IMG/VR virus record: IMGVR_UViG_3300036715_002842
Location: 41,576 to 105,575 of that record
Direction: 5' to 3' (one strand)
From: a virus
DNA length: 64,000 nt
A program made the translations under genes and the position numbers. Below the pieces are notes generated by a model. That model was not told the origin of the DNA and did not search any database. It saw nothing but the letters and a program-made list of their open reading frames with translations. Of the stretch, positions 5,323-13,805 are shown in pieces. Within the stretch, counting starts at the first letter, position 1, and the number at the start of each line of letters is the position of its first letter.

Positions 5323-5676
5323 AAGATTTCTCTACCCCCTCTGGGCTATTTGCCCGGATAATTGAGTCCAAGATCCATCAAGGATGACTCGATGCTGGTC
5401 ACCACCTTAGGCACTTTCAGAAACCCGTGTAAAATAACGGAGATTCGAGGTACCACGGGTCAAATGGTGGTTGGTATTCTATCCGTTAAGAGTATTACTT
5501 TCTACCATTTGAGGAAAGTTCTAAAGGGCAATTTTCTGGGTGACTTTGCATTTTCAAAGTTCCTCAAAAAATTGAGCCTTGATTTTTCTTCGAGACCCGG
5601 TAAATTAGTAGTATATGTTCCCCAGAGGCCCCGGCTCCCCCACCTTCTCTACTGCCCCACTTTCTAGAGGTGCTTA

Positions 5677-6768
5677 ATGCGCTTGCTGATGTTCCGGTCT
5701 CAACTCACACCTCAGGGGATAACATTCGTACCTCGTGAGGGTGAGCCGGCGCGATATAGCATCTTCCAGGACATCCACGACTACATCAAGATGAGCACTG
5801 AGAGTCTTCTCCATCCTCAGGCGGCGGTCGATCTGGTCATGGACAGCATCGCTCTACGTATCCTGCACCTGCCTCAGGCTCCGGACCACAAGGAGATCTA
5901 CAGCAGTCAGTGCACCATCCGTAAGACCAATGCGGATACCGGGAACGAGTGGTATGAGAAGACCCGGGACTTCAAAAACAAGTTTATGTATTGCATCAAC
6001 TTCAACCGTATATCTCGTGCAGCGGAAGAAGCGATTGACAATCCGAAGAAGACCCTCATCTCTATTGCCAGCTTCTGGGATGTTTCCGAATACGAACTGG
6101 AACAGATTCTGAACTGGTATTACGAAACCGGACAGCAGCTCTACGGTGCCAAGGACCAGCGCCCTGAGTGGTGGGGGCAGCGCATTGATGAGGTTGCCCG
6201 CTACAAGGCTCTGGAATTTGAGTTCGTCAAGCAGGTGAACAAGAAACTGGCTACCCCGGCCTTCAGCTACCTCGTGGACTTCTACGAGTCCAGAGAATCC
6301 ATCGTCCAGGACTTGATGCGAGAAGCCTGGCGCGCAGTTCTGGATACTTCCCACAAGCCGGAGCTTGATACCCTTCGCATGGGTAAGACCTACATCAATA
6401 CGGTCATCCATCACGTGGCCCAGAGCTACACCAAGCACCATGGGAAGCAGGCTTACAACAAGCAGAACGATACTTACGAGACCATCGAGTTCTCTCTTCT
6501 GAGTGAACCGGACATGGATGAGTCCAAGCACTTCTTCCTGGCCCACGAGGTAAGTGAGTATCACGAAATGGAAGTCTTCCATACCCTCGACAAGGTTCTG
6601 GCTGACAATGAGATGACCCTGGTGCGGGTCCTCACTGGTGATCTGGAGAGTCCGGAATTCGAGAGTTACGCCTCGGGAATGTCCAGTCGTAGGATTGCGG
6701 CCTTCACCTTCTTCAAGGTGGACGCTGAGAACCTGCGGGACAAGTTCGGATACCTGTTCCACAGCTAA
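5677..6768 (+). CDS. Hypothetical protein, possible divergent sigma-70/ECF-like transcription factor
   Basis: ESIVQDLMREAWRAV..TYINTVIHH resembles sigma region 2; LDKVLADNEMTLVRVL resembles the start of region 4. Confidence 0.4.
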   Translation: MRLLMFRSQLTPQGITFVPREGEPARYSIFQDIHDYIKMSTESLLHPQAAVDLVMDSIALRILHLPQAPDHKEIYSSQCTIRKTNADTGNEWYEKTRDFKNKFMYCINFNRISRAAEEAIDNPKKTLISIASFWDVSEYELEQILNWYYETGQQLYGAKDQRPEWWGQRIDEVARYKALEFEFVKQVNKKLATPAFSYLVDFYESRESIVQDLMREAWRAVLDTSHKPELDTLRMGKTYINTVIHHVAQSYTKHHGKQAYNKQNDTYETIEFSLLSEPDMDESKHFFLAHEVSEYHEMEVFHTLDKVLADNEMTLVRVLTGDLESPEFESYASGMSSRRIAAFTFFKVDAENLRDKFGYLFHS

Positions 6769-6816: not shown

Positions 6817-7194
6817 ATGGTCTGGTTTAAAAAACCTTCACCAGTTGGAGTTAAGAAAGAGCACTCCAAAAACGTGGAAACTCTACTTTCGATGGTTCCG
6901 CACCCAATTCGTGCCCTCAAAGAACTCATTAGTCCCGGCGGTCCAAGTGTGGCCACTCTGGTTACCCTCACGACTTGCATGTGCTTGAACGTTGAGTGCC
7001 TGATACTTGTGTGGTTCCGCGCCAAGTGGAACCAGCCAGTGACTGCGGAGCTTACGATCATAGCCGGTATGCTAAGCGCGCTCATTGGCTACGTGTACCA
7101 TCGCTACAAGTCCTCGGAAGAGAGAACCGCGGCTCACAAGCCGAAAAGATCAACGGATAAGAACCCTCTTACGCGTGCAGAGGATAAGGGTTAG
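6817..7194 (+). CDS. Small membrane protein with two hydrophobic segments (holin-like candidate)
   Basis: Hydrophobic stretches VATLVTLTTCMCLNVECLILVWF and LTIIAGMLSALIGYVY; basic C-terminal tail; SD GGAGG. Confidence 0.6.
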   Translation: MVWFKKPSPVGVKKEHSKNVETLLSMVPHPIRALKELISPGGPSVATLVTLTTCMCLNVECLILVWFRAKWNQPVTAELTIIAGMLSALIGYVYHRYKSSEERTAAHKPKRSTDKNPLTRAEDKG

Positions 7195-7251
7195 AGTTAC
7201 TCGAAGGAGCGCTCTACCCCGTTAATCTCGGCAGCAATCACCGTTTGGCCT

Positions 7252-7530
7252 CTAACTAGCGAGCGGCAGCTTTTCAATTTCTGCCATGAATGAAGGTGGG
7301 GTTGTGAAAGCTGCCGCTCGAGGTATCTTAAAGTACGGATCGGTAAATCCGATGGCACCTTCAGAGATGGCATCCTTAATAAGGAACCGTGGAGTGTCCA
7401 GGATGACCAGAGTTTCGTTCTTCCACTCTTCCGGATACTCTAGAACGAACTGAGCAATAGCGTGCCCAGCTTGAGACATCTTTTGTCCGAAAGAAAGTTT
7501 TTCGTCGATCAGAATGTAGAGCTTAGTCAT
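7252..7530 (-). CDS. Pth2-like peptidyl-tRNA hydrolase
   Basis: MTKLYILIDEKLSFGQKMSQAGHA...W...TLVIL matches the Pth2-family N-terminal pattern (G.K..Q..HA); start at 7530. Confidence 0.7.
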   Translation of the reverse strand: MTKLYILIDEKLSFGQKMSQAGHAIAQFVLEYPEEWKNETLVILDTPRFLIKDAISEGAIGFTDPYFKIPRAAAFTTPPSFMAEIEKLPLAS

Positions 7531-7834
7531 CGCTTTCCTCGTCTTCATCGTTCTTCTTGATGAGATAGGGTTTGAGAGGGTCCATATAAATGACCCCATC
7601 CTTCTTGAACGCTTCCTCGATTGCAGACATGGGAAACTTGAAAGTGTAATAGTTGTCGTTACAACTGTAAGAACAACGGCAAGGATTCACTTCCCGAATA
7701 TTCGCGATAAGATGGTCACCCTCCATTCGAAATCCCTGCAACCTAAAGTTGCTGAAGAGCTTGGAGTGATAGAAGGCGTCCTTGAGCTTCTGTTCAAACT
7801 TCTTCGTGGCTTGAAGGGTTTCGGTGTAAGACAT
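7523..7834 (-). CDS. Hypothetical protein (CxCxxxC motif)
   Basis: MSYTETLQATKK..., SD GGAG, overlaps the start of the Pth2-like gene. Confidence 0.65.
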   Translation of the reverse strand: MSYTETLQATKKFEQKLKDAFYHSKLFSNFRLQGFRMEGDHLIANIREVNPCRCSYSCNDNYYTFKFPMSAIEEAFKKDGVIYMDPLKPYLIKKNDEDEESDD

Positions 7835-7924
7835 TGGAATTCTCCACAAGTTGTAAAAGTTGATTGACAAACCGGATATGCAGCTCCGTTAACATCCTCT
7901 TCAAAGGCTTGCTGTCTAACCTCT

Positions 7925-8098
7925 TCAGATTGTGGGATGGTAATCCTTTCCAGCAATCTTTACCCAGTTTGACATTCCAATCAAGAGGTGACCGTGCTGA
8001 GAAGGGGAGAAGGGGACTAGCCCCTTCCCATCACAGTGCAGACTTGGCTTAGACGATTCGAAGACCGTCCGGCAACCAAGACAGATCCACTCTTTCAT
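7925..8098 (-). CDS. Small 57-aa protein with CxxC (MKEWICLGCRTVFES...)
   Basis: Translated by hand; ATG overlaps the TGA of the upstream gene (TGATG); below the ORF-track size cut-off. Confidence 0.55.
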   Translation of the reverse strand: MKEWICLGCRTVFESSKPSLHCDGKGLVPFSPSQHGHLLIGMSNWVKIAGKDYHPTI

Positions 8099-8544
8099 CA
8101 CTTCCCCTCTTGCATGTCGAGGAGGATCTGCGTACTCAGACCCTGCTGGAAGTCCAGAGTCTCCTTACGGAAACGCTTCTTCTCTTCCCAAGCGGCGATG
8201 TCCTCAGCAATCATTTCCTTCCATTCCGCGAGCTGGCGCTGAGAATAGTGGTCGGCTTGCTTGTGGAAGTAAGAACGGCTGGGATTCCGGTTGGGCTCGA
8301 TCTGCTCGAGGGTACGTCCACGGAGAAGGCAGTAAGCGATGTGCTTCGCTCTCCAATTCTGATCGTCGCAGCTGTAGAAGTTCTCGGGCTTGATTGCCAG
8401 GAGCTTGGCGCGAAGTTCTTCCTGTTGCTCCCCGGGAATGGAAGGCTTGAAGGTGGCATCGTAACGCCGTTCCCAATGCCTGCAAGCCACTTCGTGCTTG
8501 AGCTCTGCCTTGATGGTTGCGATCAGTTCTTTGTAAGTGGTCAT
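8098..8544 (-). CDS. Hypothetical protein (RAKHIAYCLLRGRTLEQIE motif); first gene of the amber-gated operon
   Basis: 148-aa ORF; its SD GGAGA lies inside a hairpin. Confidence 0.75.
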   Translation of the reverse strand: MTTYKELIATIKAELKHEVACRHWERRYDATFKPSIPGEQQEELRAKLLAIKPENFYSCDDQNWRAKHIAYCLLRGRTLEQIEPNRNPSRSYFHKQADHYSQRQLAEWKEMIAEDIAAWEEKKRFRKETLDFQQGLSTQILLDMQEGK

Positions 8545-8546
8545 TA

Positions 8547-8598
8547 GATTCTCCGAAATTTGAAAAGTTTGAGAAAAGGTTTTCGAATTTGGAGAATC
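8547..8598 (-). promoter_or_regulatory. RBS-sequestering hairpin for the gene at 8544
   Basis: GATTCTCCAAATTCGAAAA pairs with TTTTCAAATTTCGGAGAATC (one bulge, one mismatch); the right arm contains SD GGAGA 5 nt before the ATG. Confidence 0.75.
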
Positions 8599-8623
8599 AC
8601 TAAGGTGGGCGGTTCTACGTCAT
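8597..8623 (-). promoter_or_regulatory. Minigene 2: ATG ACG TAG AAC CGC CCA CCT TAG TGA (M-T-amber-N-R-P-P-stop)
   Basis: Strong SD AAGGAG 6 nt upstream; the read-through extension ends at the base of the RBS hairpin. Confidence 0.7.
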
Positions 8624-8634
8624 CGTAGGCTCCT

Positions 8635-8754
8635 TTACGAACAGAAAAAACCCAACAGAGGCTGCTGGGCAGCTGATCCGTTGGGGAGGAAGTGTTCTTG
8701 CGAACACAGATTTTTGTGGTGTGGCAAAACTTTGGAGCCGCGAATCTACTTCAT
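8635..8754 (-). promoter_or_regulatory. Minigene 1: ATG AAG TAG, with a 39-codon read-through frame spanning a terminator
   Basis: SD GAGGG upstream; after the TAG the frame stays open to TAA at 8635-8637, which overlaps the SD of minigene 2. Confidence 0.65.
8645..8685 (-). terminator. Intrinsic terminator (attenuator) in the leader
   Basis: CCCAACGGA-TCA-GCTGC-CCA-GCAGC-C-TCTGTTGGG followed by TTTTTT. Confidence 0.8.
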
Positions 8755-8767
8755 GGTCTTGTCCCTC

Positions 8768-8805
8768 AAATGGTTGGTACTACCCAAAATGGTTGGTACT
8801 ACCCA
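8768..8805. repeat. Perfect 19-bp tandem duplication (AAATGGTTGGTACTACCCA x2) at the predicted transcription start
   Basis: Copies at 8768-8786 and 8787-8805. Confidence 0.9.
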
Positions 8806-8812
8806 AAGACTA

Positions 8813-8841
8813 ATTATAACCCCGGATCTTTCGTTTGCCAA
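8813..8841 (-). promoter_or_regulatory. Sigma70-type promoter TTGGCA-N17-TATAAT
   Basis: -35 at 8836-8841 and -10 at 8813-8818 on the minus strand. Confidence 0.75.
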
Positions 8842-8905
8842 GGTTTGACGGAAAAATTATTTTACCCTTGGCTTCATGGTTACATATCAGTGACGATCTT
8901 GATGG

Positions 8906-9943
8906 TCATGGCTGACTCCCAGAAGTAAGGACGTTTCGTTCCATGGGCTGACCGTGCATCCAGTGTTTCACGGTCTGGACATGGGAGGCCCGGACGAACT
9001 TCCCAACCTTGACCCGAAACTCAGAGAAGGGGAATGCCTCGGCCACCCGGACCACATAGCCCTCCTGGCGATCCCATTTGCGCTTGTCCCACAAGGCGCG
9101 GATGGCCTTTTCGTCATAGATTCCGTCGTAGAGTACGGGAACAGGAGTAATCCCCAACAGGGCAAACCATTCCAGCGTCTCGTCCCAGGGGAGGCAGATG
9201 TTCCGGTCATCCCAGATGGAGAACCCAAGCAGGTAGCTGGGAAGGCCGTCGTAGCCGATGGAATGCTTGGCGTAGAGGTTTTCGCCGCACACTCGCCATC
9301 CTTCCGGGATGTCCATACGGATCTGGGACCAGAATTGCTTGACCCAGTTCCGGCTGGGGTGACTGCGCCCATCCAGGCTCCGAGCGTGGATGTGATCCTG
9401 GTAGAGGGACGTGTTTTCTCCGTCCATTTTCTCGGTAACGATCACCCGCTTCCCTGCGAGGGCTGCGGTGGAATCCATCATTCGGTCGTCGTCGTTCATT
9501 CCCTCCGACCATGGCAGATGGTGGGTCCTGGGATACTTGACCCAGTGGGTGAATAGGCTAAGAACGCCGCCAATGGCGAGCACCTTCTGAACGCTCTCGT
9601 CATGGAACAACTCCCCCTTGAGGCGCTGGCCATTGGGGAGGATGGGATTCCCCCACTTGTCATAAGGCTGGTCCGCGTAGAGATGTGGTGGGAGCAAAGA
9701 TTTGGTGATCCCGCAGGCGTTACGAACATCCTCGGTGGAGATCTCTGTGGTTTCGCACCGCATGTGGTGATCGCCACAAACGGAAGCGCCGTTGTCGAGG
9801 TAGTAGCCTCCGTCCGGCCACAGTCTGCGTTCCAGGATGTGGTGGGCGTCCGCAGCAGGTTCCCCGCAGAAGACACAGCGGCCCTTGGCGCGAGCAAACA
9901 CGGCCTCGCGGAAAGCGTCTCTGGTTAGCAGCAGGGCGTTCAT
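8906..9943 (-). CDS. HNH-domain / Rnl2-type RNA ligase fusion protein
   Basis: N-terminal CxxC...AHHI...NG..VC..HH (HNH); C-terminal YPRTHHLPWS, TEKMDGEN (motif I), GENLY, EGYVVR, KFVR; visibly higher GC than its flanks. Confidence 0.85.
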   Translation of the reverse strand: MNALLLTRDAFREAVFARAKGRCVFCGEPAADAHHILERRLWPDGGYYLDNGASVCGDHHMRCETTEISTEDVRNACGITKSLLPPHLYADQPYDKWGNPILPNGQRLKGELFHDESVQKVLAIGGVLSLFTHWVKYPRTHHLPWSEGMNDDDRMMDSTAALAGKRVIVTEKMDGENTSLYQDHIHARSLDGRSHPSRNWVKQFWSQIRMDIPEGWRVCGENLYAKHSIGYDGLPSYLLGFSIWDDRNICLPWDETLEWFALLGITPVPVLYDGIYDEKAIRALWDKRKWDRQEGYVVRVAEAFPFSEFRVKVGKFVRASHVQTVKHWMHGQPMERNVLTSGSQP

Positions 9944-10064
9944 TGGGTGGTTCCTTTCGAGTTGGATTCATTACATTTCAGACGCTACCGTATGGCGTAC
10001 CTGTGGGTGTATCCCCTTGAATTCTGGCTCGTAGTGTTTCAAAGCGGTTTCACTCTTAAAAAAG

Positions 10065-10136
10065 TCCCCACGGTGGTAGTCGAAACCACGACACAGTGTT
10101 TTAGAAGCACCTGCTCTACCGTTGAGCTACGTGGGG
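10065..10136 (-). tRNA. tRNA with CUA anticodon (amber suppressor); CCA end not encoded
   Basis: CCCCACG-TA-GCTC-AACGGTA-GAGC-A-GGTGC-TT[CTA]AA-ACACT-GTGTC-GTGGT-TTCGACT-ACCAC-CGTGGGG-A folds as a cloverleaf; has a C31:A39 mismatch and T53-A61. Confidence 0.8.
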
Positions 10137-10155
10137 AAAGATCTGCTACCTAGAA

Positions 10156-10183
10156 AGAATAACCTTGAATTTTGAATTGTCAA
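10156..10183 (-). promoter_or_regulatory. Promoter for the tRNA: TTGACA-N16-TATTCT
   Basis: Perfect -35; the -10 lies about 20 nt upstream of the tRNA 5' end. Confidence 0.6.
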
Positions 10184-10195
10184 TCCGAAATTATG

Positions 10196-10222
10196 AAAAA
10201 GCGACCAGTTCTCTGGTCGCTC
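10196..10222 (-). terminator. Intrinsic terminator after the actin-like gene
   Basis: GCGACCAG-AGAA-CTGGTCGC-TTTTT. Confidence 0.75.
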
Positions 10223-10250
10223 TTAAGAACAGGAAGAAAAGTTAAATTAT

Positions 10251-11240
10251 CTATTCATCTGAGTGCGCCAGGGCAGCGAACAGGCACCCCTTCGCGATAG
10301 CCTTCAGAGGATCCTCAGCACGAACTACCTTGCCAATCTTGATGGGGAGGTTCTGCGCCTTGAGAGCCTCTTCGAACAGTTCGATGAACCCGCCGGGAAG
10401 AGAGGTTCCACCTGCGACTGCGATCTTGGGCGGCTTCTGGAAGTCTGGTAGCTTCGCCATGCCAAGGAGTTTGTCCTTGATTTGCTTGGCTACGTACTCC
10501 AACATCGCCTTGTAGTAGTACGAAATGGCTTCCTCGGTCTGATCCTTGGGCTTGCGGAGATCAATGATCCCCTCCTTTGCGAGCATAGCCTTGACCGTGG
10601 AGATACCCAGAGAGGTGGAAACGTTCTTGTCAATGTAGTCACCGGAACGGGCTACGGAGAAGTTGAAGGCTTCCACACTCAATTGTGCGCAGCAGACATT
10701 GCACATGCCAGCGCCCCACGAAACACCAAAGCCAGAAAGATTGTCCTCGAGGAGTTCACTGTAAATGACCGACAGACCTTCATTGAGTGGTACTGGAGTG
10801 TAACCCATGTCGGTTAGGATCTTGTTGAACACATTCGAGTGGTAAACTGCATTGAACTCCTGATCGACTGGATCCCCTGGGACGGAGTAGACCACCTTTT
10901 CTTTCTTGGTGGCAGGAGCCCCAAGGGACTCTTTGATGATCGCCTGGATGATTGGCAGCGCCTTAATCTCATGGGGATTGAGAACACCTTGCGACATAGG
11001 TCGCTTGGGCTCACTGTTGAAAGCGCTAGCGAGCTCCAGTGCCTGCTGACCTAAAGCAGAAATTTCCCCCTCAAGTTCCACGTAAGGTGCACCCACCTTC
11101 TTGAGCATCGATTTTACGAAGGGGGATTTCTCTACTGGTACGAAGATATTGCGGAAAGCTTTGTACTCGAAGCTCTCCCCATCTGCACCAACCCTCGCAG
11201 CTACGATATTTCCAGTTCCCAAATCTAGTCCACAGGGCAT
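10251..11240 (-). CDS. Actin-fold ATPase, volactin-like
   Basis: GLDLGTGNIV (phosphate 1), RPMSQG, P.DPVD, PLNEGLSVIYSEL, SWGAGMCNV (phosphate 2), SVARSGDYID, AGGTS (adenosine). Confidence 0.8.
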   Translation of the reverse strand: MPCGLDLGTGNIVAARVGADGESFEYKAFRNIFVPVEKSPFVKSMLKKVGAPYVELEGEISALGQQALELASAFNSEPKRPMSQGVLNPHEIKALPIIQAIIKESLGAPATKKEKVVYSVPGDPVDQEFNAVYHSNVFNKILTDMGYTPVPLNEGLSVIYSELLEDNLSGFGVSWGAGMCNVCCAQLSVEAFNFSVARSGDYIDKNVSTSLGISTVKAMLAKEGIIDLRKPKDQTEEAISYYYKAMLEYVAKQIKDKLLGMAKLPDFQKPPKIAVAGGTSLPGGFIELFEEALKAQNLPIKIGKVVRAEDPLKAIAKGCLFAALAHSDE

Positions 11241-11305
11241 ACGGACTCCTCTGAATTTTTAACCTTCTTGGCTCTTCTTTTGAATCTCGAATCTTTTATC
11301 GCAGA

Positions 11306-11833
11306 TCATTGAGCGGATTTCCTCAGTTTTGCCTTGAGGTCTGATAAGGACCCGACCTTCGATTTTGATTCTTCCATGGATATCTGAATATCTTCCACAC
11401 CTTTAATGCTTGGTACGAAAACATCGATTGGGCTATCTTTCGAGATTTGAGAAGAAGGGGTACCCCCATTAATTACAAGTGCACCAAGTGCTTCGAGAAG
11501 ATCCGCTTTTGTAAGTCCAGTAGGTTGAGGTGTCGGCATTTCCCTTGGCAGAGTTGCCAGATGCTCCCCCACGACTTCTTTGAGCATACTTCTCAGATCT
11601 TCTCGATCAATGGTAGGTACTACTGGGGAAGGTGGCACTGGATCTGCTAGATCCAGGAACTCGAAGGAGAAGATGGTTCCCATCGTCTGCCAATCGGGTG
11701 GGAGAGATGCGGCCGAGACCACCACCCAGGTTCCAGGTTCCAGAAACTTATTGGCTATCCAGGCGCCAATCGAACCAGACTGGCTACGGTGAGAGATGTT
11801 GGTGATTTTGACCAATCGTTCCATTAATGGCAC
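11306..11833 (-). CDS. Hypothetical protein, possible partner of the actin-like protein
   Basis: 175 aa with Pro-rich linkers, directly upstream of the actin gene. Confidence 0.6.
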   Translation of the reverse strand: MPLMERLVKITNISHRSQSGSIGAWIANKFLEPGTWVVVSAASLPPDWQTMGTIFSFEFLDLADPVPPSPVVPTIDREDLRSMLKEVVGEHLATLPREMPTPQPTGLTKADLLEALGALVINGGTPSSQISKDSPIDVFVPSIKGVEDIQISMEESKSKVGSLSDLKAKLRKSAQ

Positions 11834-12123
11834 TTTTCAAAGATTCGAAGGTCGCCCAGATCGAACGAGACCTGTATTCCGAACGAGTCCTTCGCAGCTT
11901 TTTCTAACTTTGCAACCAGAACGTGAACTGGAGGATCTACGGAGTTGTCACACTCACCCCGCTTTATTTCCAGGATTCTTGAGGACTTGAAGCAAAGATA
12001 GAAGGATTCTTCATCAAATTCCATATAAAACGGGGAAGTAGCCATTCCCACCCGGTAATTGATATCCGGGGACCATTTGAAATATCTTTGTGAAACGGTT
12101 TTCATAAGTTCACGAATTTTCAT
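11824..12123 (-). CDS. Hypothetical protein
   Basis: 99-aa ORF overlapping both neighbours. Confidence 0.6.
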   Translation of the reverse strand: MKIRELMKTVSQRYFKWSPDINYRVGMATSPFYMEFDEESFYLCFKSSRILEIKRGECDNSVDPPVHVLVAKLEKAAKDSFGIQVSFDLGDLRIFEKCH

Positions 12124-13805
12124 ATTTTCACCAATTCAAATTTTAATTGTCCGCAATCCCAGATTCGAAGGATTCCCGCTTGATCCATAATTTCTTTCTG
12201 CGTTCCAGAAAGGTGTGGAAATCTCTTTGATAACTTATCGTGTGTGTAGTTCAAACGGTTGATTCTGAAGTCTCTGAAATTTTCAAAACCATGAAAACTG
12301 GGCGGAATTTCACCCACAAGACTGAAACCAGTTTTTAGATACAATTCCCCACGACTCCAACATCCATCAGCAAAGGTGTAAATTCTTTTCCAATTTACCT
12401 TTCTTTTGAAGTGTTCGAGAAGTTTAGAAAATCCACCTACAACACTGCAAGAGGTTGCGTAACGATTGAGATCGTAGGACCCATTTCCCATGGATTTGAG
12501 GGTTAACATCGCAACGAGAGCACCCCCATTCTGAAGCGCGTAGGTTATCGAACCAGCGCCATCCCCTTTGATATGATTTGTCTCATAGAAACTCTTCTTT
12601 TGCTGTGAAGTTGGAATTAAGATTGAACATTTTCTAGCAAAAACTCTTTCTTTTTCTAATCCAACGAAAGCTCGAATTTTCTTTTCAAGTAGGGTTCTCT
12701 TAAGTAACCAATCATCCGACCAGATATGAATCAACCTAATTCCCAACCGTTCACATTCGAGGGTCTTTTCGTGGTGGTACTCTGGTTTTTGATGGAGTTC
12801 TGAATGCCAGTAAAGACCGTTGTATTCAAAAGCTAGTTTGAAATCTGGTAGATAAACATCTATTTCTTTTCTAGATTCAGAAATCTTACCCACCATTTTC
12901 GCTAGTTTCTGAAAAGATAACCTTGCTATCGTTTTCAATTCTAGAGAATCTATGAAGTCAATGAAAGATCTTTCTTCCGCACTACTTCCCTGGTTAGCAA
13001 AACCTCTTAACTCCAAATTGGAGTATTTCCAGAAGTAATTCGAAGCACCTGCCGCGTTGATTCCAAGTTCAGCTGCAATCTGATCAATACTTCTTTGTTT
13101 GTTGCAATACTCTTCTTTCCAGAATTCTTCTGAAGTAATTTTTTCGATGATTGCTTGAGGAAGCTTAGGTCTTTGAACAATTCTGCGTCCCCTCGAACTC
13201 TGGATAAAATGGGCCACACCATACTTTCTTAGACTAGTCTCCCTACTTTTCAACTTTATTGATTCAAGTACCGCTGGATTTTCTACCCCATATTTCTGTA
13301 AACAGGTGGCTTTCATCTTTAATCTTATTGATTTTTGTAAGTCAACATTTTTCAATTTCTCCGATATTTTTTCTTTGACTTCCACCGCCTGACTAGCGTT
13401 TTCAACTCCAAACCTTTCCAAGTTAGTTTCTTTCATTCGTTGCTTAACTATATCGGATTGAGCTGGGTGATGAGTTCCATAGTGATTTTGAGAAGTTTCG
13501 GCTTTCTTCTTCTTAACTATATCAGATTGACTAGCATTTTCAACTCCGAACCGTTCCAAGTTCGTTTCTTTCATTCGTTGCTTAACTATATCAGATTGAC
13601 TAGCATTTTCAACTCCGAACCGTTCTAAGTTCGTTTTTCTACACTTGTCAAGAATTTCTTCTTTAGAGGTCTCTAAAATTCGAAGTCTACTTTCACTTTT
13701 TCTTTTTCTTGTTGCTGGACAAGAGTTTGCGGATTTTCCACATCGAGAAGGTTTTTCCGGTGGAAACACCGCAATTAAACCACACCCATACTTACACAAC
13801 TTCAT
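12120..13805 (-). CDS. Free-standing homing-type endonuclease (Cys-rich N-term, KxTNLERFGVEN repeats, PD-(D/E)xK domain, conserved C-terminal domain); paralog 1
   Basis: EIDVYLPDFKLAFEYNGLYWHS, GIRLIHIWSDDW, YDLNRYA, RIWDCGQ; AT-rich relative to its neighbours. Confidence 0.75.
   Translation of the reverse strand: MKLCKYGCGLIAVFPPEKPSRCGKSANSCPATRKRKSESRLRILETSKEEILDKCRKTNLERFGVENASQSDIVKQRMKETNLERFGVENASQSDIVKKKKAETSQNHYGTHHPAQSDIVKQRMKETNLERFGVENASQAVEVKEKISEKLKNVDLQKSIRLKMKATCLQKYGVENPAVLESIKLKSRETSLRKYGVAHFIQSSRGRRIVQRPKLPQAIIEKITSEEFWKEEYCNKQRSIDQIAAELGINAAGASNYFWKYSNLELRGFANQGSSAEERSFIDFIDSLELKTIARLSFQKLAKMVGKISESRKEIDVYLPDFKLAFEYNGLYWHSELHQKPEYHHEKTLECERLGIRLIHIWSDDWLLKRTLLEKKIRAFVGLEKERVFARKCSILIPTSQQKKSFYETNHIKGDGAGSITYALQNGGALVAMLTLKSMGNGSYDLNRYATSCSVVGGFSKLLEHFKRKVNWKRIYTFADGCWSRGELYLKTGFSLVGEIPPSFHGFENFRDFRINRLNYTHDKLSKRFPHLSGTQKEIMDQAGILRIWDCGQLKFELVKI
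13395..13640. repeat. Coding tandem repeats with about 69-nt period (KETNLERFGVENASQSDIVK)
   Basis: Near-identical DNA blocks, e.g. CTTAACTATATCAGATTGACTAGCATTTTCAACTCCGAACCGTTC twice. Confidence 0.8.

Follow-up and report, generated by a model that had tools for sequence, protein, structure and literature searches.

Genes and features of the locus

The window, i.e. the whole stretch of 64,000 nucleotides that was analysed, comprises bases 41576-105575 of a 105,575-bp IMG/VR virus record with an estimated completeness of 38%. Its source is a fragment of a jumbo phage that uses the standard genetic code, and jumbo phages of Caulobacter and Ralstonia were identified as distant relatives via its RNA ligase gene. 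The phage is not recoded. Translation table 11 leaves long ORFs intact with an ORF cover of 0.91, and TAG is the stop codon of 30 of 111 crude ORFs; the combination typical of code 15, i.e. in-frame TAG in many genes and TAG rare as a stop, was not found. As TAG closes many genes of the phage itself, among them gene D of the operon described below, strong suppression would be costly to the phage. Elsewhere in the window (5362-6768, plus strand), a 101-aa ORF ended by TAG shares its frame with the following gene (363 aa), which starts three codons on. The second gene has its own Shine-Dalgarno sequence (SD), so this arrangement may be a coincidence rather than programmed readthrough.

The features of the locus, from upstream to downstream, are as follows.

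10156..10183, minus strand: sigma70-like candidate promoter of the tRNA, TTGACA-16-TATTCT (consensus scan, 10/12 matches)
10064..10136, minus strand: tRNA with anticodon CUA, amber suppressor (ARAGORN; Rfam tRNA, 57.7 bits)
8906..9943, minus strand: HNH-RNA ligase gene, between tRNA and leader (Pfam RNA_ligase, E = 3e-32)
8813..8841, minus strand: sigma70-like candidate promoter of leader and operon, TTGGCA-17-TATAAT (consensus scan, 11/12 matches)
8769..8806, minus strand: 19-nt repeat in two exact tandem copies (TTGGGTAGTACCAACCATT), candidate operator (from the sequence)
8635..8767, minus strand: gate 1, M-K-UAG mini-ORF (from the sequence)
8645..8685, minus strand: intrinsic terminator, stem 8685-8651 and U6 8650-8645 (predicted fold, -21.3 kcal/mol)
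8597..8635, minus strand: gate 2 leader, SD AAGGAG followed by M-T-UAG-N-R-P-P-UAG-UGA (from the sequence)
8547..8598, minus strand: predicted hairpin, in which the post-stop stretch pairs with the gene A SD GGAGA, 8554-8550 (RNAfold)
8098..8544, minus strand: gene A, 148 aa, all-helical, next after gate 2 (AlphaFold2, pLDDT 91.5)
7925..8098, minus strand: gene B, 57 aa, CxxC motif, start overlapping the stop of gene A (no family hit)
7523..7834, minus strand: gene C, 103 aa (no family hit)
7252..7530, minus strand: gene D, 92 aa, PTH2-like (peptidyl-tRNA hydrolase 2 fold; ESM Atlas), end of the operon

The tRNA(CUA) gene lies 1.4 kb upstream of the gate 2 leader on the same strand and about 15 kb from the 12 other tRNA genes of the contig. 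It has a C1-G72 pair, A73, a short variable loop and no encoded CCA. A T-run follows its 3′ end, and CCA is encoded by 10 of the 12 other tRNAs of the contig; the closest relative among the phage's own tRNAs is tRNA-Met(CAU), with 73% identity. A pattern derived from the tRNA(CUA) gave no match in IMG/VR. When positions 7000-12500 were searched against Rfam (E ≤ 1), the tRNA was the sole match, indicating that the gate region is not a known riboswitch or T-box. The locus was found in no RNA run among the public runs. The gene upstream of the tRNA (10251-11240, minus strand) matched Pfam Volactin (archaeal actin) over its full length with E = 2e-79, which was unexpected for a phage with sigma70-like promoters and SD sites.

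In contigs of three metagenome runs, position 8856 was joined to position 10058 and window positions 8857-10057 were absent, showing that the HNH-RNA ligase gene is missing in a co-occurring strain. Record lengths suggest that about 480 nt of other sequence replaces this region in the variant strain. Genes A-D were present in none of 54 loci sharing the RNA ligase. Only one of these loci (L042) carried a tRNA(CUA), and an unrelated gene lies downstream of the tRNA there.

Seven homologues of gene A were identified (P0001-P0007). Foldseek searches of the PDB with gene A gave no fold match and the ESM Atlas nothing usable. Used alone or aligned, gene A retrieved no locus from IMG/VR, JGI metagenomes, GTDB genomes or GenBank phages, and its back-translated DNA pattern had no match in metagenomes. 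Gene D showed no direct Pfam match; it agreed with viral PTH2-like clusters with an ESM Atlas features score of 0.91 and a TM score of 0.82, and 57 relatives were found by HMMER, PF01981 being matched by 10 of the 40 aligned ones. As single sequences, genes C and D retrieved nothing from IMG/VR, but a profile of distant relatives of gene D did retrieve loci. At no fewer than 19 loci (at least 19), gene A was homologous to the ORF directly upstream of the PTH2-like gene (E down to 4e-11), and in four loci (L074, L119, L126 and L130) the A-like and PTH2-like parts formed one fused ORF, which argues for a joint action of both proteins. In the window, genes B and C sit between gene A and the PTH2-like gene; the tRNA lies upstream here and downstream in relatives.

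The gate 2 leader and the SD hairpin

On the minus strand, gate 2 consists of the SD AAGGAG (8635-8630), a spacer of 6 nt, ATG (8623-8621), ACG and TAG (8617-8615), followed in frame by AAC, CGC, CCA, CCT, TAG (8602-8600) and TGA (8599-8597). The internal UAG is codon 3 of a nine-codon leader and stands in a UAG-A context. This layout had been the basis of the original prediction, and all of its coordinates proved correct on the minus-strand sequence; the UGA proposed as a back-up stop does follow straight after UAG 8602-8600.

RNAfold predicted a hairpin with 13 basal pairs between 8598-8586 and 8560-8547, a bulged C at 8555 and an apical helix of 5 bp. The hairpin alone has a predicted energy of -15.2 kcal/mol, with z-scores of -2.84 for a 111-nt stretch and -4.2 for the segment from stop to start. 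The SD GGAGA (8554-8550), with 8595-8591 as its partner strand, was wholly paired in this fold, in agreement with the earlier proposal that the hairpin buries the SD of the gene starting at 8544. An SD unpaired probability below 0.02 was found for 10% of the SD-starts in the contig. The hairpin starts 1 nt past UAG 8602-8600, and exactly 16 nt (8614-8599) separate the first UAG from the first paired base, where about 16 nt had been postulated.

Constrained folds were calculated with the footprint of a ribosome, its A site on each of the stops in turn, barred from pairing. With the ribosome on the first UAG, the hairpin was kept at -15.2 kcal/mol and the unpaired probability of the SD was 0.00. 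With the ribosome on the second UAG or on UGA, the hairpin was gone and the unpaired probability rose to 0.22-0.27, weaker alternative pairs still covering part of the SD. The usual toeprint distance is +16, so a ribosome with 8602 in its A site should enclose the mRNA to about 8590.

Mini-ORFs made up of an SD, ATG, one codon and TAG occurred four times in 211 kb (both contig strands), two of them within one leader of 262 nt. In 20,000 dinucleotide shuffles of this leader the probability of at least one such mini-ORF was 0.0008 and two were never reached (P(≥2) = 0); with a loose definition of the mini-ORF, the same shuffles gave P(≥2) = 2e-4. The presence of two such mini-ORFs in a single leader is therefore far beyond chance.

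Gate 1, the intrinsic terminator and the tandem repeat

The second of these mini-ORFs, gate 1, has the SD GAGGGA (8767-8762), followed by ATG at 8754, AAG and TAG (8748-8746). If this TAG is read, a frame of 39 codons results, which ends at TAA 8637-8635 and thereby overlaps the SD of gate 2. The predicted intrinsic terminator falls inside this readthrough frame. The locus with the closest A homologue (L068) has a single leader, M-K-UAG-I-T-K..., which gate 1 resembles. Gate 1 is also like the in-frame M-K-UAG starts of two further loci (L066 and L118), but it crosses an intrinsic terminator. The window is special in having two leaders in series, most relatives having one leader, at times with two UAGs.

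The 19-nt repeat is located at about +1 of the transcript, contains GGTAGTACC and occurs nowhere else in the 105-kb contig. As a candidate operator it might form a further layer of control; a variant strain has only about one copy of it. A 6-nt complementarity of the repeat to the T-arm of the tRNA, found in a check by eye, was judged to be due to chance.

Variation among co-occurring strains

Variants of the locus were obtained from contigs of three sediment and microbial-mat runs and represent co-occurring strains. Between 8481 and 8707, the main variant differed from the window by one substitution and four single-base indels. Three of the indels fell into the apical loop of the SD hairpin, whose energy stayed the same (-15.1 kcal/mol). 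The terminator gained one pair from the substitution and another from the fourth indel (-27.3 versus -21.3 kcal/mol). The gate 2 leader and the basal stem were identical in the variant strains, and the tRNA(CUA) was without differences among those listed. No compensatory changes were found in the basal stem among the strain variants, i.e. there is no covariation within the window's lineage. In gate 1, a -1/+1 pair of indels shifted the readthrough frame for about 20 codons, and the frame was still open and ended at the same TAA. This would suggest, as weak evidence from sequence comparison, that the open frame is conserved and the gate 1 peptide is not; the evidence is weak because other frames across the terminator are also open.

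Conservation of the leader in relatives

The profile of gene D relatives (alignment A2) gave 162 matches in IMG/VR, from which 80 loci, 68 of them distinct, were kept. A suppressor tRNA on the same strand was present in 75 of the 80 loci; for 72 of these, its distance from the start of the PTH2-like gene was no more than about 1.5 kb. The anticodon was CUA only in 67 loci and UUA only in seven, and one locus had both. The 68 distinct loci were scanned for a pattern consisting of an in-frame start, 1-8 codons, a stop, 3-12 codons and Pro-Pro-stop; the scan covered the coding strand for 1.5 kb ahead of the PTH2-like gene, and both strands of the rest. The pattern was found 35 times just upstream of the PTH2-like gene, with TAG as the first stop in all 35 cases, and not once in the remaining 1.2 Mb of the relative loci on both strands. 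Under relaxed rules, a UAG leader was detected in 42 of 45 distinct CUA loci.

Examples of these leaders, with x for UAG, are M-T-x-T-S-K-H-P-P, M-R-x-I-T-Y-K-P-P, M-K-x-I-K-I-P-P and ...W-A-x-V-N-R-P-P, and a leader with two internal UAGs is M-K-L-x-I-G-Y-T-x-V-C-R-P-P-P-x-UGA. The number of codons ahead of the internal stop ranged from 1 to at least 12, and the base 3′ of the internal UAG was A or G in 28 of 28 leaders listed. R-G-P-P occurred in some relatives (L123, L133 and L134). The leader of L078, like that of the window, ends in UAG-UGA; such a terminal tandem makes sense if UAG is being suppressed. A sub-family with two UAGs (L058, L059, L075, L087, L113, L117, L120, L125 and L128) showed (F/H)-W before each UAG, N-W being present at the first UAG of L120, and ended in I-R-(S/G)-P instead of Pro-Pro-stop.

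The gap between the terminal stop and the next start was 34-80 nt in relatives. For 25 of 28 distinct leaders, at least 6 of the 18 nt of the next SD/AUG were predicted to be paired, and the partner strand started at an offset of -12 to +12 nt relative to the end of the terminal stop, the median being -5. The mean z-score of the 28 leaders was -3.3, compared with -0.5 for 121 other gene starts from these loci (Mann-Whitney p = 7e-13). Pairing of 10 or more of the 18 nt was predicted for 21 of the 28 leaders and for 43 of the 121 control starts, so that predicted occlusion of the SD as such is not rare among controls. The window is typical of the class: 12 of 18 nt are paired at the start of gene A, the offset is +1 and the start lies 55 nt from the terminal stop. 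It likewise has the leader directly upstream of the A-like gene and a PTH2-like gene in the cassette, an in-frame stop early in the leader that is followed by a purine and corresponds to the anticodon of a nearby same-strand suppressor, and a Pro-Pro-stop end with an SD-masking hairpin within about 12 nt.

In the clade with tRNA(UUA) (L070, L079, L081, L082, L106, L109 and L111) the tRNA gene adjoins the PTH2-like cassette, and the leaders contain an internal UAA between Trp and Val, e.g. M-E-L-Q-H-W-UAA-V-T-C-D-R-G-P. The clade matched Lak megaphages, and reading TAG as a sense codon raised its ORF cover from 0.42 to 0.86. Where TAG appears to be a sense codon, the leader stop would thus be the one read by the neighbouring tRNA. 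The switch from UAG to UAA was probably a single evolutionary event and, judged from these sequences, is what a leader sensing readthrough would predict.

Mini-ORFs of similar kind were also seen in cultured jumbo phages. In XacN1 (L136, 1440-1475), RAS14 (L137) and Xoo-sp13 (L138), an SD followed by ATG AAG (AAG) TAG is situated in frame and shortly before the start annotated for the PTH2-domain gene. The PTH2-like ORF of pT24 (L139) itself opens with M-K-UAG. The N-terminal part of XacN1 ORF364 has the look of an HD domain rather than of the A-like protein.

Proposed mechanism

The sequence features, the linkage to the tRNA and the conservation of the design across phages were observed directly, the fold being a prediction. 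From these we consider it likely that gate 2 attenuates translation by means of a leader peptide, as in the ermC type, and that it responds to readthrough of UAG by a suppressor tRNA which the phage itself encodes. Three things are retained among relatives, namely the reading frame beyond the stop, the Pro-Pro-stop and the hairpin position, and the remainder of the peptide varies; this argues that readthrough must sometimes happen and that the position at which the ribosome ends is what matters. On sequence grounds, the mechanism appears well supported by the comparison. We infer readthrough itself, a pause at the Pro-Pro-stop and the opening of the hairpin.

In the off state, the SD of gene A would be locked in the hairpin, and a ribosome starting at AUG 8623 would terminate at UAG 8617-8615. 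The front edge of this ribosome would reach about 8605 and stay short of the hairpin, so that gene A remains off. In the on state, the phage tRNA(CUA) would decode UAG 8617-8615 and the ribosome would continue for four more codons, as far as Pro-Pro-UAG-UGA. Once UAG 8602-8600 or UGA 8599-8597 occupies its A site, it would enclose 8598 to about 8588, which is exactly the strand predicted to pair with GGAGA. Slow termination after Pro-Pro would then leave the SD exposed long enough for a second ribosome to start gene A. That reading through to the Pro-Pro-stop frees this SD had been the central claim of the original prediction; it gains support from the predicted geometry, the tRNA(CUA) in cis and the recurrence of the design in distant phages. 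Gate 1 might apply the same trick to the intrinsic terminator, and both gates together would couple the operon of genes A, B, C and the PTH2-like gene to the level of active suppressor tRNA.

By analogy, the conserved Pro-Pro-stop would fit a pause at termination. According to a review, poly-Pro C-termini lower termination efficiency most (PMC6412442). For the uORF peptides ending in NAP-stop and NSP-stop, arrest occurs once the stop codon behind the C-terminal Pro occupies the A site (PMC10987492).

A wider reading, which we put forward tentatively and regard as possible rather than probable, is a closed control loop. Phages of otherwise standard code would undergo a temporary and partial code change, the leader would gauge readthrough of UAG (or UAA), and it would turn on A-like and PTH2-like proteins that act on the suppressor tRNA or on peptidyl-tRNAs and stalled ribosomes resulting from readthrough.

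Alternative explanations

The leader might sense general termination capacity instead of its own tRNA, the gate being opened by slowing of RF1 or by near-cognate readthrough. Loss, inhibition or titration of RF1, e.g. in response to host defence or to another phage, would then be the signal. UAG is read only by RF1, and UAA by both RF1 and RF2; the design of a UAG leader alone is equally compatible with more suppressor and with less RF1, and five of the 80 loci had no suppressor tRNA within the flanks examined. However, the other 75 keep one on the same strand, almost always within about 1.5 kb, and the leader stop is UAA in the tRNA(UUA) clade. As both release factors read UAA, a sensor of RF1 does not predict the switch from UAG to UAA, and we regard this explanation as unlikely.

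Alternatively, M-T-UAG might be a two-codon minigene like lambda bar, in which readthrough plays no part and the dipeptidyl-tRNA that drops off is the substrate of, or signal to, the PTH2-like protein. Bar minigenes consist of a strong SD, AUG, one sense codon and a stop. The window has this layout, and a PTH2-like gene closes the operon. Yet the number of codons ahead of the stop varies from a single one to 12 or more in relatives, and the codons after the stop stay in frame to a Pro-Pro-stop at the foot of the hairpin in 35 of 35 cases and nowhere else. Termination at the first stop leaves this conserved downstream frame and the Pro-Pro-stop unexplained, so that a minigene of this type is highly improbable.

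An effect of opposite sign was also considered, in which the ribosome at the Pro-Pro-stop blocks or destabilises the expression of gene A and readthrough would turn the operon off. One route to such an effect would be through nucleases or rescue factors, which stalled ribosomes can attract, and the sign assigned here is that of the model. On the other hand, the distance from the terminal stop to the next start (34-80 nt, 55 nt in the window) is too large for steric blocking, and the predicted default fold already hides the SD, which would make an off switch redundant. There is little to commend this alternative, and we give it a very low probability.

A chance mini-ORF beside an ordinary hairpin with no regulatory role, to which frequent short ORFs and common predicted SD occlusion would lend themselves, was already very unlikely from the shuffle tests and the recurrence of the design in distant phages, and is hardly credible. 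Translational attenuation relieved by suppressor-dependent readthrough remains the most likely explanation for gate 2.

Comparison with known systems

Like the ermC and cat leaders, gate 2 has a small ORF preceded by its own SD, and the next SD is hidden in a hairpin whose 5′ strand lies where the leader ends. In ermC and cat a ribosome halted at this point opens the hairpin, and gate 2 has the corresponding arrangement. It differs in that the signal is a ribosome-targeting drug in ermC and cat, whereas in gate 2 it would be an early stop decoded by a suppressor tRNA; the hold would come from the Pro-Pro-stop, and no resistance gene lies downstream. Lambda bar minigenes assign no role to downstream codons, unlike the leaders described here, which conserve the frame and the Pro-Pro-stop. 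For gate 1, the closest parallel is the pyrBI attenuator of E. coli, in which a leader ORF crosses an intrinsic terminator and a ribosome following closely prevents formation of the terminator hairpin. The leader ORF of gate 1 likewise runs across an intrinsic terminator, but a UAG at codon 3 would decide on the arrival of the ribosome, instead of UTP-dependent pausing of the polymerase.

Literature text searches gave no description of a natural leader that senses readthrough; recoded phages and synthetic switches were found. Synthetic amber switches comprise a 'Uaa transcriptional switch', with TAG in a tna/trp-type leader, and translational switches with multiplexed UAGs (PMC6412442). In these, too, downstream expression needs a tRNA(CUA) that reads the leader UAG, and several UAGs sharpen the response. 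They are engineered, whereas the leader of the window is natural, phage-encoded and conserved, with an SD hairpin and an intrinsic terminator as its proposed targets. Recoded phages using code 15 (Borges et al., preprint 10.1101/2021.08.26.457843) resemble the window's phage in that a phage suppressor tRNA times certain genes. The stops lie inside many late genes in those phages, but in a tiny leader of one small operon in the window.

The original prediction had also likened the end of the leader to RAPP/RGPP arrest motifs and to Pro-stop pausing. Like RAPP/RGPP and NAP/NSP-stop peptides, the leader has a C-terminal Pro or Pro-Pro followed by a stop and a regulated gene downstream (PMC10987492). 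It ends in N-R-P-P, however, and not in R-A/G-P-P (or RAGP), its peptide has 7 residues and lacks an N-terminal segment in the exit tunnel, and it carries no localisation signal and no linkage to sec or yidC. The likeness to RAPP/RGPP is only partial, because R-P-P mismatches the motif and 7 residues cannot reach far into the tunnel. Most RAPP-like motifs alone do not arrest (PMC10987492), and assignment of the leader to the RAPP family of arrest peptides was rejected on this count and on the mismatch of R-P-P. Of the two likenesses, Pro-stop pausing stands: by analogy, a termination pause after Pro-Pro would be the better comparison.

Significance

Large phages without recoding commonly carry suppressor tRNAs, and a conserved leader whose stop matches the neighbouring tRNA provides a concrete and testable target for them. 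The authors of the XacN1 study found no targets for the CUA tRNAs of that phage (PMC5852040). Iyer et al. described PTH2 in jumbo phages and tied it to the repair of cleaved tRNAs, without a link to suppressors (PMC7824862); the present locus would link the PTH2 genes of jumbo phages to the readthrough of stop codons, beyond such repair. If the proposed mechanism is true, it would be the natural counterpart of synthetic amber switches, including the sharpening of the response by several UAGs. The leaders also suggest that whole-genome recoding could start from one regulated operon. Should the closed control loop hold, orphan suppressor tRNAs would gain a first defined target together with a built-in governor, and the window would represent the strictest version of the loop, in which transcription termination and translation initiation each have an amber gate of their own.
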